40,191 nucleotides of DNA, taken from UHGV virus genome UHGV-1553673. One strand, written 5' to 3'. Shown here one piece after another: positions 4,336 through 40,191 of this stretch (within the stretch, counting starts at the first letter, position 1; each line of letters begins with the position of its first letter). The notes beneath the pieces are model-generated. The model had not been told where the DNA came from and searched no databases. It was given only the letters and a program-made list of their open reading frames with translations. The DNA comes from a virus. A program made the position numbers and the translations under genes.

Positions 4336-4719
4336 TCAGAATGGGATGGAATCGTCGTATACAGGAGTGTTCTGCTGGTTACTACTTTGCTGCTGCGGGC
4401 TGTTTCCTGAAGTTGCAAATCCAATCTTTGCATTCAGTAATTCAAGAGTGATTGATTGACCATTTTGCCCCTGATAAACATCAACCCTGATGTTTTCTCC
4501 GGTAATTTCTACAATGCCACCTTCAACAAGAACACTACGGTAGTAATCCGCTTGCGCTCCCGGCTTGGCAAATACAACGGCGCTGTAGTTTGTCCATTCT
4601 TTCTTTTTTGTCTGGCGATCGTAATACTGAACGCCAGCACGGATATTGAATCCGATATTTTCCCCGGCCTGAAACTCTCTTGCGGGCTTGTTTAGTCTTA
4701 CAGTAATCGAATGTGCCAT
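4336..4719 (-). CDS. ssb: Single-stranded DNA-binding protein
   Basis: Acidic C-terminal tail ...YDDSIPF typical of SSB; start overlaps the erf stop (TAATG). Confidence 0.75.
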   Translation of the reverse strand: MAHSITVRLNKPAREFQAGENIGFNIRAGVQYYDRQTKKKEWTNYSAVVFAKPGAQADYYRSVLVEGGIVEITGENIRVDVYQGQNGQSITLELLNAKIGFATSGNSPQQQSSNQQNTPVYDDSIPF

Positions 4720-9647: not shown

Positions 9648-10295
9648 TCAGCCAAACGTCTCTTCAGGCCACTGCGCCTTAACTACCTTGCCTATGATGC
9701 GGCAGCTATGGTCGCAATCCAGGGTTCTATATGCCGGGTTTAAAGGTACCAGGTAACTAACCCCTGCATCCTTCTCATACTTCTTGAACGTTGCCTCTGA
9801 ATCACCATTTGCAGAAGCCACGCAGAAATCCCCAGACTCTACCGGCTCAGCCGGATCAACGAGTATCAGCATGCCTTCCGGAAAACTTGGACGAACCCCC
9901 TGAGGCGCCGTCATTGAATGCCCCTTCACCTCAAGCCAGAAAGCTTTTTCGCTGGCTTTTGTGGTCGTTGGGACCCATGCCTTTGCATCGCTGGCTGTGT
10001 AGCTTCCCACCTCCGAAAATGGCCCGGCCTGCACTGAAGAAAATAACGGGTATTCATATTGGCGAAATACGGCGTCTGAATCCTCGCCAAACATTATTTT
10101 TGCCGGAGATACGCCGAGTGCCGCCCCAAGAACCAGCGCGTCATCCGCGCTAACCTTTCTTGTTCCTAACTCGTAGTTCCCCAGGCGTGAAGGCGCAGCC
10201 CAGCCGCAAAGCTTGGCCAATTGAGCCTGGCTAAGTCCTTTAGCTTCTCTAAGGGACTTTATCCTTTCCCCGATAATTTCATGCATCGTTTTCAT
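9648..10295 (-). CDS. cI: CI/C2-type prophage repressor (HTH + S24 LexA-like peptidase domain)
   Basis: N-terminal XRE HTH ([11 protein letters not shown]); C-terminal GHSM...KK autocleavage motifs; divergent from cro. Confidence 0.9.
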
Positions 10296-10380: not shown

Positions 10381-10403
10381 TGATTAATGCTAGGGAGACC
10401 GCA

Positions 10404-10622
10404 ATGAACAAAATTGCCCAGCAGCGAAAAAAAATCGGAGTTTCGCAAGCTGTACTAGCTTCGGCAATTGGTTGGGGGCAATCCCGCATCGCCAACTATG
10501 AGCTGAATATCCGTACTCCTGGCCTTAACGATTGCCGAATGATCGTAGAAGGCCTCAGGAAGTTAGGGTGCCAATGTTCTTTGGATGATGTTTTCCCTCC
10601 ATCCAGTAACAAAGCCGCCTAA
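10404..10622 (+). CDS. cro: Cro-like HTH regulator
   Basis: XRE-family HTH (IGVSQAVLASAIGWGQSRIANYE); AGGGAG RBS; divergent from cI. Confidence 0.8.
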   Translation: MNKIAQQRKKIGVSQAVLASAIGWGQSRIANYELNIRTPGLNDCRMIVEGLRKLGCQCSLDDVFPPSSNKAA

Positions 10623-10630
10623 GCAGTACC

Positions 10631-10672
10631 CGCTCTTTAACAGTCATGGCCTTTCACCTCTAACCGGGTGAG
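10631..10672 (+). promoter_or_regulatory. nutR: boxA CGCTCTTTAACA plus boxB hairpin
   Basis: boxA at 10631-10642; hairpin tcaccTCTAACCgggtga with the same CUAACC loop as nutL. Confidence 0.7.
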
Positions 10673-10739
10673 CAAACATCAGCGGCAAATCCATTGGGTG
10701 TGCCGCTATAACTCAATATCAATATAGGAAAATTAACAA

Positions 10740-11036
10740 ATGGCACAAGCAAGCTACAGCAAGCCAACACAGCGAGAAATTGATCGCGCTGAAACTGATT
10801 TACTCATCAACCTGTCAACGCTTACCCAGCGCGGTCTGGCAAAGATGATTGGCTGTCATGAATCGAAGATAAGCAGAACGGACTGGAGATTTATTGCTTC
10901 GGTCTTGTGTGCTTTCGGAATGGCATCAGACATCAGTCCGATTAGCAGGGCTTTTAAGTATGCGCTTGATGAAATCACAAAGAAAAAATCCCCGGCCGCC
11001 ACCGAGGATTTTAAGCAAATTGATATGCAATTCTGA
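10740..11036 (+). CDS. cII: CII-like transcriptional activator
   Basis: C-terminus ...[18 protein letters not shown] resembles lambda CII ...KKRPAATERSEQIQMEF. Confidence 0.8.
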
Positions 11037-11068
11037 GGGAATTACTGGATCAATCCACAGGAGTAATT

Positions 11069-11215
11069 ATGACAAAACAACTCAGTCCTTACCAGGACAA
11101 AATTCACAAACACATACTACGTGATCGCTTCCTGTCCAGCTTCAAGCAGCCTGGTCGATTCCGGGCTGAGTTGGAAAAGGTGAAGCTGATGCAGAAGGAG
11201 AAAGGTCATGAGTAA
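11069..11215 (+). CDS. Hypothetical small protein (48 aa)
   Basis: AGGAG RBS 7 nt before the ATG; below the ORF-track cutoff; a similar small ORF sits here in P22. Confidence 0.4.
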
Positions 11216-12107
11216 CATATCTAATCTAGCCGAAGCCAGAGAGGCCAGAAGGCTACAACAACCGCATCAAAGCAGCGGTAAGGGGTATGCCTTGCTGCAC
11301 CGTAAAATTATGGATGTGCCGTTTTACAAGGATGCAGAAGCAGCGCATCTGTGGGTTCACTTAATCCTCAAAGCAAAGCATACGCCTGAGTATGTAATGA
11401 CTGACGCAGGAGAAATTCTGGTAGGCAGAGGGAAGCTACTTGGCGGTAGAAACTCTCTGGCGTTTGAAACAGGACTCAAACCAGATCGCGTTCAGTACCT
11501 GCTTAGAAAGTTCAAAAAACTCGGCATGATTGACTGGGTTTCACACGGTAAATTCTCAGTTTTCTCGGTAGAGAAATATGACGATTATCAGTCAAATTTT
11601 GTACCAGCAGATTACCAGCAAATTACCACCTCAAAGCCAGCAATACCAATGCCTGTAAGCAATACTGTACCAGCAGATTACCAGCAAATTACCACAGATA
11701 AAGAATATAATAATATTATCTCTAATACTGACGTATTAGAGAGTGCCACAGTAGACAAAAAGTCTGACAAGAAAAAACCTTCCGTTAGCTGTCAGGATGT
11801 TGTCGATGCTTACCACGAAATCCTTCCTGAAGCGCCAAAAATCCGCGCACTGAATGACAAGCGTAAAAACCAGATCCGAACGTTCTGGCGCAAAGCCGGA
11901 GTGATAACCCGCCAGCTTGACGGGCATGGGTTCACGATGCAGGACTGGAGAAATTATTTGATCTACGTAGGCGAAAATTGCCGATGGATGTTCGAAGAAC
12001 GCCCAAACCATCAACGCGGAACCGTCTGGCACAAAAAGGGATTTGATTTCCTGCTTAACGACAATACCTACCTGAAAGTTCGTGAGGGTGAACACGATGA
12101 CCGATAA
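11208..12107 (+). CDS. Replication initiator protein (lambda O / P22 gp18-like)
   Basis: Position before the helicase gene; iterons inside the coding sequence; AAGGAG RBS. Confidence 0.75.
11601..11740. repeat. Origin of replication: iterons plus AT-rich segment
   Basis: 29-nt direct repeat gtaccagcagattaccagcaaattaccac at 11601-11629 and 11667-11695 (four CAGCARATTACC units), followed by AT-rich 11701-11740. Confidence 0.7.
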
Positions 12108-13533
12108 TTTTTATGCGCCGCCCCATAGCATCGAGGCAGAGCAGGCGGTGATTGGTGGATTGCTTCTGGATGATGACAGCAGTGAGCGCGTCCAGAAAGT
12201 TCTGGCGATGCTGAAGCCCGATTCATTTTACAGCCGACCACACAAAATCCTTTTCGAAGAAATAACCAGAATGCACCGGGAGCAAAAGCCAGTAGATGGC
12301 CTGACGCTTTTCGATGAACTGGAGCGTAAATCGTTAACGGCGTCTGTTGGCGGTTTTGCTTATATCGCTGAGATCGCAAAGAACACGCCGAGCGCCGCAA
12401 ACATCGTTGCCTATGCAATGCAGGTTCGCGAAACCGCAATGGAACGCTACGCCATCAACCGCATGACTGAAGCGACGGAATTGCTCTATTCCCGCAACGG
12501 AATGACTGCAACGCAGAAGTACGAAGCTATTCAGGCGATTTTCACGCAACTGACAGACCATGCAAAAACCGGATCGCGTCGAGGCCTTCGCTCATTTGGT
12601 GAGGTCATGGAAGACTGGGTTAGCGACCTTGAGAAGCGATTTGACCCGTCAGGCGAACAACGAGGAATGAGCACAGGGATCCCATCTCTGGACAGGATGC
12701 TGTCACCGAAAGGTCTGGTGAAAGGCTCTCTGTTCGTCATTGGCGCTCGCCCTAAGATGGGGAAAACGACGCTATACAGCCAGATGGCAATCAACTGCGC
12801 AGTGCATGAGAAAAAGCCCGCTCTGATGTTCAGTCTTGAAATGCCAGGCGACCAGATACTGGAAAAGCTGGTAGGACAGAAGTCAGGTGTTAACCCGAAT
12901 ATTTTTTACCTTCCGGCGACAAATGACGCTGATGACGGCTATCAGGGTGATTACGATGGTGACTTCAACAGGGCGATCGAAACAGCCAATCGCTTGAGTG
13001 AAATCGACCTGCTTTACATCGACGACACGCCGGGATTATCTCTGGCTCAAATCGTCAGCGAAAGCCGTCGAATCAAGCGAGAAAAAGGATGTGTTGGCAT
13101 GATTCTGGTCGATTACCTGACACTAATGACCGCTGAGAAGGCCGATCGCAACGACCTTGCTTACGGCATGATCACCAAAGGACTGAAGAACCTTGCCAAA
13201 GAGCTTGATTGCGTTGTTGTGCTTCTGACACAGCTTAACCGCGCACTGGAAAGCCGAACCAATAAACGCCCATTACCAAGTGACTCACGAGATACAGGGC
13301 AGATTGAACAGGATTGCGATTATTGGGTGGGGATCCATCGTGAAGGCGCTTTTGATGACAGCGTTCCTCCTGGTGAAACCGAACTAATCCTTCGCCTCAA
13401 TCGTCATGGCAATACCGGCACGGTGTATTGCATTCAGGCAAATGGCGCTATTTATGACACAGACCAACAGTCTGCTGAAATGCGCCGCCGTGAACGCGAG
13501 GAACCGCAGTCCAAGAAGAAAGGAGGATTCTGA
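12097..13533 (+). CDS. DnaB-family replicative helicase (P22 gp12-like)
   Basis: Walker A GARPKMGKT and DnaB-type motifs; ATG at 12097 overlaps the end of the initiator gene. Confidence 0.9.
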   Translation: MTDNFYAPPHSIEAEQAVIGGLLLDDDSSERVQKVLAMLKPDSFYSRPHKILFEEITRMHREQKPVDGLTLFDELERKSLTASVGGFAYIAEIAKNTPSAANIVAYAMQVRETAMERYAINRMTEATELLYSRNGMTATQKYEAIQAIFTQLTDHAKTGSRRGLRSFGEVMEDWVSDLEKRFDPSGEQRGMSTGIPSLDRMLSPKGLVKGSLFVIGARPKMGKTTLYSQMAINCAVHEKKPALMFSLEMPGDQILEKLVGQKSGVNPNIFYLPATNDADDGYQGDYDGDFNRAIETANRLSEIDLLYIDDTPGLSLAQIVSESRRIKREKGCVGMILVDYLTLMTAEKADRNDLAYGMITKGLKNLAKELDCVVVLLTQLNRALESRTNKRPLPSDSRDTGQIEQDCDYWVGIHREGAFDDSVPPGETELILRLNRHGNTGTVYCIQANGAIYDTDQQSAEMRRREREEPQSKKKGGF

Positions 13534-36837: not shown

Positions 36838-38625
36838 TTATTTCAAAGATTGAAGTAAGTCTGTTTTTTTGTCTAAGACTTCTCCAATGTAACTTGCTCC
36901 ATATTTCGTTAGATGGTTTGCATCATATGATAAAAATTTGCCATTCTCATCAAAAACTCTAACCATTCCATTGTTGTCTTTTATAAGGTCAAACAAATCT
37001 ATGTAGTCATCGCCAAAAATCATTTTCGCCTTATTGTTAAACTCTATATATCTTGATAGCGGGTATGTTTTTGCTAAAACTCTGTCATTAAGAGACAGGT
37101 TAACAGCAAAGTTATTGTTATACCCGAAGTTTTTTGTGCCAATCAAGTACATTTTTGCAGTTGTTTTTGATTTTATGTAATCGTAACAGTGTTTTAACTT
37201 TTCAACGTTATTATTATAGTCGCCTGCACCCCAATTCTCCGAATATAAAATAATGTCTGAGTCATTCAAGTAGTAATCTAATTTATTTTTATTATCTATT
37301 GACCAATCACATCCACCCTCAAAATATACAATATTAAGATCATTTGTTTTAATCTTTGTAGATATTGCATTAATTAAATCTCTCGCATATGAGTTACCCA
37401 TGATTAATATTTTCTTTCCATTGTCTGAGAACTCAATATTCTTTAATTTCTTCGGGCTATCCACATACTCCTGTGGATTTCCTCCATATGCAAGATCAGG
37501 CCTGATATTTTGCAATCCATATGTTTTGTGCATCAAAATTCCTGATGCTGATAACACCAACGAAAATGCTAATGTATATGATAAGATTTTTTTTGTAGAT
37601 GTTTTTCTCTTGTTTCTGAATGGTTTTTCTACAAAAACATAAGACATCCACGATATAATAAAAATTAAAGGAATGGATGCGATAAAATATGTTGTTGACG
37701 GTTCAAATTTTGAGTTTAATCTTATAAATGCAAAAACAGGTTGATGCCAAAGGTATAGAGAATAACTTATCATGCCACATAACACAATTGGTTTTATTGA
37801 CATGAGCTTTCCAATTCCTTTAGATGCATTTGAATGCATTAAAAACAAACATGCACCAAGAACTGGAAATAATGTTTCAAATCCAGGGTGTGATTTTTTA
37901 CCATTCACAATGAAGTAACTTGATATTATCAATAAAAAACCAAGGTATGCTAAGATGTTACTTTTTCTTTTTATTTTATAGTGCGCAATAGCGGCAACCC
38001 CACCAAGAGCAATCTCCCACGCCCTTGAAGGGAGCATAAGAAATGAAAGCTCCATATTATGCACTGTTGTAATTGTTGCATATAAAAAACTGGCAATTGA
38101 TATTACCAGTAAAAACATAAAACTATTCTTTATTAGTTTATTATGATTTATTGAGTAAATTATATATATTATTACAGGGGCTACAAGATAATACTGTTCT
38201 TCTACAGCAAGACTCCATGTGTGATACAATGGTTTAAATTCAGATGCTGTAGACCAATATCCTGACGTTAAGTACAATAATATATTGTTTGCTGAAAAAA
38301 TTGTTGCAACAACTGATTGACCTAGATTCTTTAGGTCATATGGAACCATCATAAATAATGATATAATGAATGTTACTGATGTCATTAGAATTAATGCAGG
38401 CGCAATTCTACGAACCCTTCTCTCATAAAACCCAGAGAATGTAAATGTTCTATTGCTGCATTCTTTCAGCAAAATGCTGGTAATTAAAAAACCACTAATA
38501 ACAAAAAAAACATCTACTCCAAGAAAGCCGCCAGGAATCCATTGAACACCTGCATGAAAAAAGATAACAGGTAAAACAGCTAATGTTCTCAACCCATCAA
38601 TTTCGGGTCTGTATTTCAGTTCCAT
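36838..38625 (-). CDS. O-antigen acyltransferase, OafA/Oac-type (acyltransferase-3 membrane domain + SGNH domain); lysogenic conversion gene
   Basis: 595 aa; multi-TM N-terminal half (MELKYRPEIDGLRTLAVLPVIFFHAG...); C-terminal GNSYARD SGNH-like motif; strongly AT-rich. Confidence 0.8.
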   Translation of the reverse strand: MELKYRPEIDGLRTLAVLPVIFFHAGVQWIPGGFLGVDVFFVISGFLITSILLKECSNRTFTFSGFYERRVRRIAPALILMTSVTFIISLFMMVPYDLKNLGQSVVATIFSANNILLYLTSGYWSTASEFKPLYHTWSLAVEEQYYLVAPVIIYIIYSINHNKLIKNSFMFLLVISIASFLYATITTVHNMELSFLMLPSRAWEIALGGVAAIAHYKIKRKSNILAYLGFLLIISSYFIVNGKKSHPGFETLFPVLGACLFLMHSNASKGIGKLMSIKPIVLCGMISYSLYLWHQPVFAFIRLNSKFEPSTTYFIASIPLIFIISWMSYVFVEKPFRNKRKTSTKKILSYTLAFSLVLSASGILMHKTYGLQNIRPDLAYGGNPQEYVDSPKKLKNIEFSDNGKKILIMGNSYARDLINAISTKIKTNDLNIVYFEGGCDWSIDNKNKLDYYLNDSDIILYSENWGAGDYNNNVEKLKHCYDYIKSKTTAKMYLIGTKNFGYNNNFAVNLSLNDRVLAKTYPLSRYIEFNNKAKMIFGDDYIDLFDLIKDNNGMVRVFDENGKFLSYDANHLTKYGASYIGEVLDKKTDLLQSLK

Positions 38626-38797: not shown

Positions 38798-39979
38798 TCA
38801 TTGATGTGGCCTAAAAGTTGCGCTATTTTTCTCTCCATCAAGCCAATCTGCCCACCACTGCATCATTTCTCTGCGCTTATCTAGATACTGAGCATGGTTG
38901 TAAATCCCGCGCACAGATCCGCCGTTGGCATGTGCAAGTTGCACTTCAATAGCATCAGCAGGCCATTCGTGCTCGTTCATAATCGTGCTGAATTCATGCC
39001 TGAATCCGTGACCGCTTTCCAGACCCTCATAGCCGATTCGTTTGATCACAAGTAATACCGCGTTCTCGCAGATTGGCTTCTTCTTATCGTTACGCCCGGC
39101 AAAAACAAACTCTGATACTGGTTTGGTGATTGAGCTTAGCGTAGTGAGAAGTTCAACCACCTGGTCTGACATAGGAACCACATGAATTTTGCGTCCCTTC
39201 ATCACACTGGCGTCGATAGTGATAATCCTGTTTTCAAAATCGACGTTCTTCCATTGCATGGAACGAAGCTCTTTCGTTCTTAGGGCTGTGTAGCGTAAAA
39301 CTTTGGTCGCAATGAGCGATACGATGCTTCCTGAAAATGTTGCCAGTGCTTTGTTGAATGCCGGGATCTGGTCTGCAGGAAGAAACGGGAAGTTCTTCTT
39401 GCGGTATCCTTTCATGGCGTCAGCAAGGTCAGGTGCCGGGTTATATTTAGCCCTACCAGTGACAATAGCGTAACGGAAAACCTCGCCGCATCTTCTGCGG
39501 GCTTTATTTGCTCGCTCCATTGCACCGCGATCTTCAAATCTGCGGATTACTTCCAGTAGTTGCATCGGCTCAATATCCTGAATTTCAAGACCGCCGATGA
39601 TGGGTAAAATGTCGTCATCAAACATTTTTGCAAGTTCATTTGCATAGCCTACTGACCAGACTTGCTTCTTGTGCTCGTACCATTCCTTGTAAATGGCGCT
39701 AAAGGAATTGTTGTTAGATGAAGCCTTTTTCGCCTTTACCGGATCGATGCCAACCGAGATGTCTTTCCTCGCGGTCCATGCTTTATCCCTTGCTTCCTGC
39801 AAAGTCATAAGCGGATATTTTCCGACAGTCAGGATTTTCTCCTTACCGTCAATCTTGTAGCGAAGCTGCCATACCTTTTTCCCTGATACAGGGACATAAA
39901 GGTACAGGCCATTACCATCGAGTAGGCGGTATGGTTTTTCTTTCGGCTTTGCTGCTTCAATCTGCTTAACGGTGAGCAT
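38798..39979 (-). CDS. int: Tyrosine integrase, P4/IntS-type
   Basis: N-terminal arm-binding domain (LTVKQIEAAKPKEKPYRLLDGNGLYLYV...); C-terminal catalytic R..H..R..Y region; adjacent to the tRNA; the ORF extends to 40015 with a non-ATG start. Confidence 0.9.
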   Translation of the reverse strand: MLTVKQIEAAKPKEKPYRLLDGNGLYLYVPVSGKKVWQLRYKIDGKEKILTVGKYPLMTLQEARDKAWTARKDISVGIDPVKAKKASSNNNSFSAIYKEWYEHKKQVWSVGYANELAKMFDDDILPIIGGLEIQDIEPMQLLEVIRRFEDRGAMERANKARRRCGEVFRYAIVTGRAKYNPAPDLADAMKGYRKKNFPFLPADQIPAFNKALATFSGSIVSLIATKVLRYTALRTKELRSMQWKNVDFENRIITIDASVMKGRKIHVVPMSDQVVELLTTLSSITKPVSEFVFAGRNDKKKPICENAVLLVIKRIGYEGLESGHGFRHEFSTIMNEHEWPADAIEVQLAHANGGSVRGIYNHAQYLDKRREMMQWWADWLDGEKNSATFRPHQ

Positions 39980-40140
39980 GGGTAAAAATCCGGTGGGTAA
40001 AATTATTTTATCCACTTTTTACCCGTCATGGAGTGCGGCTGTCAACGATCTGACGCGAACCATGACGAACTGTGAATCTACGGAAGGCTTGATATTCAGG
40101 GGATTTTGCGGACTGGTACGGATGGAGGCGAACTGATAAA

Positions 40141-40155
40141 TGGTGTCCCCTGCAG
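40141..40155. repeat. att core copy inside the tRNA 3' end (integrase-proximal)
   Basis: Exact 15-nt repeat of 442-456. Confidence 0.7.
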
Positions 40156-40191
40156 GAATCGAACCTGCAATTAGCCCTTAGGAGGGGCTCG
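40141..40191 (-). tRNA. argW: tRNA-Arg (anticodon CCU), 3' portion; truncated by the window edge
   Basis: Minus strand reads ...AGCCC-CTCCTAA-GGGCT (anticodon stem-loop with CCT), T-arm GCAGG-TTCGATT-CCTGC, acceptor and ACCA. Confidence 0.85.

Follow-up and report, generated by a model that had tools for sequence, protein, structure and literature searches.

A predicted iteron-type replication origin inside the initiator gene of a P22-like E. coli prophage

Genomic context of the initiator gene

The DNA analyzed here, referred to below as the window, is the whole 40,191-nt stretch of virus genome UHGV-1553673. Its replication region contains three overlapping genes:

11069..11215, + strand: small gene orf48/hkaW (DUF2740), overlapping the initiator start
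11208..12107, + strand: replication initiator gene (ORF, 299 aa), of the HK620/HK022 "O" type, called the "Eru3A" type in Stx phages
12097..13533, + strand: DnaB-type replicative helicase gene (HK620 "P", functional counterpart of P22 gene 12)

The 299-aa initiator was matched by PHROG 345 ("replication initiation O-like", E = 8e-86), and no family in Pfam or NCBIfam scored above cutoff for it. The protein is 100% identical to HK620 O and 98–99% identical to the O proteins of HK022 and VT2-Sakai, and the gene DNA is 99.8% identical to HK620 O and 99% identical to VT2-Sakai O. The domain bounds used were aa 25–128 for the N-terminal domain (N-domain) and aa 190–299 for the C-terminal domain (C-domain), both approximate. 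The helicase gene (Pfam DnaB_C, 3e-60, and DnaB, 3.5e-31; PHROG 19) lies directly downstream and, with its start position (12097) adopted from the HK620 annotation, overlaps the initiator end by 11 nt. The small gene (Pfam DUF2740, 8.9e-29) is also found 5' of the initiator in HK620, phage L, Chronis and ST101 and belongs to the conserved replication module.

Upstream of the initiator lie a LexA-like cI gene, cro, cII and the small DUF2740 gene. An 83-nt tRNA-Ala(cgc) called by ARAGORN within the cI repressor gene (10015–10097, minus strand) was not recovered by Rfam at the gathering threshold and is probably a false positive. A strong terminator-like hairpin of 12 pairs is present on the minus strand at 10985–11012, followed shortly, on the plus strand at 11044–11076, by a conserved 33-bp "ACTGGATCAATCCACAGGAGTAATTATGACAAA" box, which has been described as the oop promoter and 5' end (PMC3349717). 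Hairpin and box together suggest a lambdoid oop antisense RNA; oop RNA was not reported by Rfam at 10985–11076.

The window as a whole is a P22-like prophage: its tailspike has a P22 head-binding domain, it encodes an integrase, and it ends in a truncated tRNA. Its best overall match, IME10, extends over just 56% of the first 25 kb. The tyrosine integrase gene (38798–40015, minus strand) is followed by a tRNA gene (40144–40191, minus strand; Rfam, 31.3 bits) that is cut by the end of the window, an arrangement that looks like a prophage end with a tRNA attachment site. Between tailspike and integrase lies a very A+T-rich gene (36838–38625, minus strand), encoding an AT3 acyltransferase fused to an SGNH domain and probably an O-antigen-modifying moron; most of the lowest-G+C windows of the whole sequence fall within it.

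Anatomy of the repeats

The predicted origin is contained entirely inside the initiator gene, in the linker between the N- and C-terminal domains, and consists of the following elements:

11600..11633, + strand: iteron cluster I, three 11-bp units GTACCAGCAGA / TTACCAGCAAA / TTACCACCTCA, starting at 11601, 11612 and 11623
11634..11665, + strand: spacer between the clusters, the most polymorphic part of the region
11666..11699, + strand: iteron cluster II, three 11-bp units GTACCAGCAGA / TTACCAGCAAA / TTACCACAGAT, starting at 11667, 11678 and 11689
11696..11718, no strand assigned: A+T-rich stretch, presumed DNA-unwinding element, of which 11699–11718 is 95% A+T
11719..11742, no strand assigned: perfect 10-bp inverted repeat with a 4-nt loop, TCTCTAATAC tgac GTATTAGAGA (arms 11719–11728 and 11733–11742)

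A sequence-only reading of the window had described a 29-nt direct repeat at 11601–11629 and 11667–11695. The repeat is real, but its length is 30 nt: TGTACCAGCAGATTACCAGCAAATTACCAC occurs exactly at 11600–11629 and 11666–11695, and lengthens to 35 nt at 94% identity (starting at 11595 and 11661). The four CAGCARATTACC units of the same reading were found at 11605–11616, 11616–11627, 11671–11682 and 11682–11693, and adjacent 12-mers share one base, which sets the actual period at 11 bp. Six in-phase 11-bp units, arranged 3+3, with the core (G/T)TACCA, give a better description of the repeats, the second cluster being offset from the first by exactly 66 bp (6 x 11). A seventh in-phase CCA unit, weaker than the others (AAGCCAGCAAT, 11634–11644), falls in the spacer. 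The duplicated 10-aa peptide that had been pointed out is encoded at aa 132–141 and aa 154–163.

The motif KTACCAGCARA has four exact matches in the 40 kb, all within the iteron region, and with one mismatch allowed there are 13 matches in the 40 kb, compared with 2.3 expected from shuffles. No second repeat cluster of this kind was found anywhere in the window. Single one-mismatch copies are scattered at 4371, 13565, 15837, 20733, 22321, 30666, 32496, 37100 and 38103; these nine compare with ~2.3–2.7 expected, an excess of marginal significance (~3% of column-shuffled motifs reach nine, p ~0.03), and may reflect codon usage or weak secondary sites.

A structured-RNA or structured-ssDNA reading of the repeats was rejected, as the iteron region has no single-strand fold (z = +1.24). 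An Rfam search returned nothing in the origin region.

A+T-rich block and palindrome

The AT-rich block that the earlier reading had placed at 11701–11740 is borne out by its composition (80% A+T, versus 55% for the gene). Of 40152 segments of 40 nt, the one that starts at 11687 ranked 44th lowest in G+C, and an A+T-rich block is found at the equivalent place in all homologues.

The inverted repeat at 11719–11742 was absent from that description. As ssDNA it folds with a free energy of -8.6 kcal/mol (z = -5.9), and among close relatives none of its 24 sites is variable. Across 26 distinct versions from homologues, 98.1% of cells are paired; each segment was centered on its own best hairpin, which introduces some bias into this count, but the hairpins do share one position in the gene. 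Compensatory changes were seen at all ten pairs, and G-U combinations in only 1 of 260 cells. Such strictly Watson-Crick pairing is more in keeping with a DNA palindrome than with an RNA helix.

The arm sequence of the palindrome tracks the C-domain (partial r = 0.63) and not the N-domain (0.04), which places a module junction in the A+T block. Identity to Sf6 and phage L also starts within 11696–11718. It is here that a module of N-domain and iterons joins a module of C-domain and palindrome.

A DnaA-dependent origin was considered and dropped: no DnaA box is present in 10387–12758, and DnaA boxes are not enriched in the window.

Conservation of the layout among homologues

A set of 120 related loci was drawn from annotated phages, IMG/VR and GTDB genomes and reduced to 105 distinct full-length genes. 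It provided ~100 distinct homologues at 44–99% amino acid identity, from phages and from Enterobacter, Yersinia, Erwinia, Pantoea, Raoultella and other genomes. The order of elements (three units, 33-bp gap, three units, A+T block, perfect 9–10-bp palindrome with a 4-nt loop) is kept in nearly all of them, down to 44% amino acid identity and at equal distance from the gene end, with both unit triplets on one 11-bp lattice at a 66-bp offset. At least five different unit cores are in use, in which CCA is invariant and the flanking bases define the classes:

TTACCAGCA: the window, HK022-type genes, Enterobacter and Pantoea prophages
TGTCCAACG: phage L, Sf6, ENT47670 and Edwardsiella
TGTCCAGCC: Chronis, Kosakonia and Izhakiella, with the near variant TGTCCAGCG in an Erwinia prophage
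(G/A)TGCCAACA: ST101, Raoultella, Yersinia and Brenneria
AATCCAA(A/G)G: Ewingella and Biostraticola

Exceptions to the layout were copy-number variants and one Silvania/Leclercia lineage. In the latter (prophage loci L110 and L111) the units (ATTACCAA...) are ~12 bp apart and less regular, with A+T block and palindrome unchanged. The 66-bp (22-aa) module occurs twice in the window and in most relatives, once in L063 (gene 1501–2334, 834 nt), three times in L059 and L060 (gene 1501–2466, 966 nt; 321 aa, 26 protein clusters) and four times in P0001 (343 aa, 35 member sequences), the proteins concerned being P0001–P0027. With a copy number that varies from 1 to 4, the encoded peptide is a tolerant linker, and the repeats recombine among themselves.

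The module is very common in E. coli prophages, with single protein clusters present on hundreds of contigs and one on ~1000. Enterobacterial-type initiator copies were also seen in L095, a contig labelled Chryseobacterium sp. 18061 (a Bacteroidota species), and in L118, a 501-bp contig labelled Catenulispora yoronensis (an Actinomycetota species); these labels likely reflect contamination or mislabelling.

Selection on DNA and co-variation with the N-domain

The 11-bp unit passes through all three reading frames (GTA CCA GCA GAT TAC CAG CAA ATT ACC ACC), and the repeat therefore cannot stem from a repeated peptide. Encoded peptides vary between lineages while the DNA periodicity is kept. In pairs of genes that share a unit class and have N-domains no more than 75% identical, third-codon identity was 94% in the unit cores, versus 46% over all N-domain codons and 52% over same-residue codons. 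Among 46 close relatives, polymorphism did not separate the origin elements (9 of 110 sites variable) from the rest of the gene (82 of 790; p = 0.61), so the deeper comparisons were used instead; the spacer had 7 variable sites of 33 in the same relatives, including the only two common polymorphisms.

Unit class tracks the N-domain: with the C-domain controlled for, the partial Mantel r is 0.86, a value reached in 0 of 2000 permutations. It does not track the C-domain (r = -0.40). Since the iterons lie ~100 nt from the N-domain coding region, linkage alone would give some of this co-variation. Sf6 and an HK022-type gene have identical C-domains and differ in N-domain and iterons, and a Pantoea prophage shares its iterons with the window at 76% identity in the N-domain and only 45% in the C-domain. 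Taken together, the third-codon, palindrome and unit/N-domain patterns provide strong evidence for selection on the DNA and support the origin reading.

Within the N-domain, one short segment stands out:

11484..11513, + strand: codons of the putative recognition helix, aa 93–102 of the N-terminal domain

Residues 96, 97, 100 and 101 of this segment change together with the iteron core across lineages, in the following combinations:

QY..RK with unit TACCAGC
KY..(N/G)K with unit TGCCAAC
KS..RK with unit GTCCAGCC
KS..R(S/T) with unit GTCCAACG
KS..DT with unit ATCCAA(A/G)G

Aa 93–102 are probably the recognition helix, as judged from these correlations, and the N-domain fold is probably a winged helix. 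Pfam matches to winged-helix families were weak and sub-threshold, a low-confidence single-sequence AF2 model (pLDDT 43.7) has a helix at 92–104, and PDB sequence and profile searches with the initiator gave no match.

Comparison with annotated and known origins

The feature is already known as a prediction, and public records carry the annotation. The HK620 GenBank record contains a two-part "rep_origin" and that of VT2-Sakai an "ori iteron 1" and an "ori iteron 2"; these features map exactly onto 11600–11629 and 11666–11695 of the window. At the homologous site, the Sf6 record notes a repeat region likened to the lambda origin and to HK620, and the phage L record a "putative origin of replication". 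Zaworski et al. described six imprecise 11-bp repeats (TGTCCAACGGA) in gene 18 of phage L as "likely the origin" (PMC8022706). In Stx phages the module has been named Eru3, in a paper that does not discuss the origin (PMC8044961). No binding, footprinting, origin-plasmid or initiation-mapping data for HK022/HK620-type origins were found in the searchable literature, a scope outside which the key early papers on HK022 and VT2-Sa fall, and origin function in this family is at present inferred.

The window shares its element with HK620, HK022, HK630 and VT2-Sakai ("Eru3"): gene DNA is 99–99.8% identical, the iteron blocks match throughout, and downstream lies the same DnaB-type helicase partner, so that only the surrounding prophage mosaic differs. 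The initiators of phages L, ST64T and Sf6 (gene 18 / gene 43) are homologous at 64–66% amino acid identity, with C-domains 92–98% identical, and their genes have the same 3+3 layout of 11-bp units, 66-bp offset, A+T block and palindrome sequence. They differ from the window in the unit core (TGTCCAACG versus TTACCAGCA), in an N-domain that is only ~50% identical and in the putative recognition helix, which reads DNKV(K/R)SLLR(S/T)F, unlike that of the window.

The sequence-only reading had likened the site to lambda ori within the O gene. This holds for the layout and not for ancestry, the initiators having no detectable homology (hhalign probability against lambda O, 0.08%). In lambda, too, the origin lies in the initiator gene at the domain junction, with iterons followed by an A+T-rich block and then a short inverted repeat, which is of 12 bp and lies ~42 nt after the last iteron (L122, 863–890). 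Lambda iterons, however, are four, of ~19 bp, internally dyad-symmetric and spaced 20/24/23 bp, in contrast to the six 11-bp direct units without dyad symmetry seen here; Phage_rep_O of Pfam did not match the 299-aa initiator; and lambda P is a loader that captures the host DnaB, whereas this phage encodes its own DnaB-type helicase. Specificity in lambda resides in the N-terminal part of the initiator and in the iterons (PMC2629481).

P22 likewise has its origin inside the initiator gene (gene 18) and a DnaB-type helicase partner (gp12). The C-domains of P22 gp18 and the window family are weakly similar (hhalign E = 1.3e-4, probability 53%), but their N-domains have no similarity detectable by hhalign, and P22 has four iterons of ~20 bp with the lambda-like 20/24/23 spacing rather than six of 11 bp. 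Theta plasmids (pSC101, R6K, RK2, F, P1) combine phased direct repeats with a plasmid-encoded initiator and an adjoining A+T-rich unwinding element. Plasmid iterons, at 17–22 bp, are found outside the rep gene and usually cooperate with DnaA boxes. The present units are 11 bp long and intragenic, with no DnaA box in the 10387–12758 interval.

Alternative explanations

The repeats might bind the initiator while replication starts elsewhere, and serve in control through O-P autoregulation, initiator titration or "handcuffing". Plasmid iterons are known to function in both origin and control roles, and a 66-bp module present in 1 to 4 copies in nature is as expected of a dosage-type control element. 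That the A+T block and palindrome adjoin the repeats in every lineage, as in lambda ori, nevertheless speaks for an origin, as does the lack of any other such repeat cluster in the window. P22/L hybrids are stated to have exchanged only the whole replication region (Hilliker, 1981, as relayed in PMC8022706), which on that second-hand account puts the origin within the replication region. A role in control with initiation elsewhere is considered very unlikely. Strongly disfavored is a reading of the repeat as no more than a linker peptide that was duplicated, or as a product of recent slippage, without any role at the DNA level. It does encode a duplicated peptide in a disordered-looking region, and recombination adds and removes copies of the 66-bp module, but the 11-bp units run in three frames, their third-codon identity is 94% against ~50% in the flanks, the layout survives to 44% amino acid identity with different unit sequences, and the peptides differ across lineages while the DNA periodicity persists.

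For the hairpin at 11719–11742, together with the T-rich minus-strand sequence beside it, the competing explanation is an intrinsic terminator of leftward (antisense) transcription that is no origin element. In a consensus scan it resembled a minus-strand terminator (10 pairs, tail TAATATTATT), and that is how the homologous hairpin is labelled in the phage L record. The stem, however, contains just 3 G-C pairs and its tail is an imperfect T run; a scan of both strands over 10900–12300 gave no promoter-like site; the Watson-Crick co-variation, with its single G-U cell in 260, suits a DNA palindrome over an RNA helix; and lambda ori carries an equivalent inverted repeat. A terminator was judged unlikely.

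Interpretation and proposed mechanism

The placing of an origin inside the initiator gene by the sequence-only reading is supported by the annotated origins of relatives, by DNA-level selection and by the co-variation of iterons and N-domain. We consider it highly probable (roughly 0.85) that a P22-like (Lederbergvirus-type) E. coli prophage with an HK022/HK620-type module has its replication origin in these repeats. Assignment to the iteron-origin class follows from phased direct repeats whose sequence co-varies with the initiator N-domain, with linkage as a caveat, and which are under selection as DNA by third-codon identity; assignment to the HK022/HK620-type (Eru3A-type) module follows from the near-identical initiator, the two 30-bp blocks in place and the DnaB-type helicase downstream.

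In the proposed mechanism, the initiator N-domain (aa ~25–128) would bind the six (G/T)TACCAGC... units, 3+3, at a near-helical phasing of 11 bp. The resulting protein-DNA complex would strain and open the adjoining 95% A+T stretch, and the C-domain (aa ~190–299) would recruit the phage's own DnaB-type helicase, encoded immediately downstream. The conserved palindrome next to the A+T stretch probably has a part in its opening or in helicase loading.

A more far-reaching proposal, which is possible but on present evidence doubtful, is that the origin consists of two exchangeable halves. The iterons would be matched to the N-domain by a residue-to-base code of helix 93–102, and the palindrome would belong to the C-domain/helicase module, as an entry site for a DnaB-type helicase loaded without a separate loader; the 1 to 4 modules would tune origin strength or incompatibility. 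This reading was not found in the searchable literature.

The comparative data firm up the origin prediction and leave the accepted picture unchanged. What they add is modest: a correlation between the putative recognition helix and the units, an origin in two parts and a palindrome whose arms covary. From these come testable hypotheses as to which helix reads which bases and what role the palindrome has. The Stx2a phage of O157:H7 Sakai also carries the module, and its toxin production is driven by phage replication (PMC8044961).
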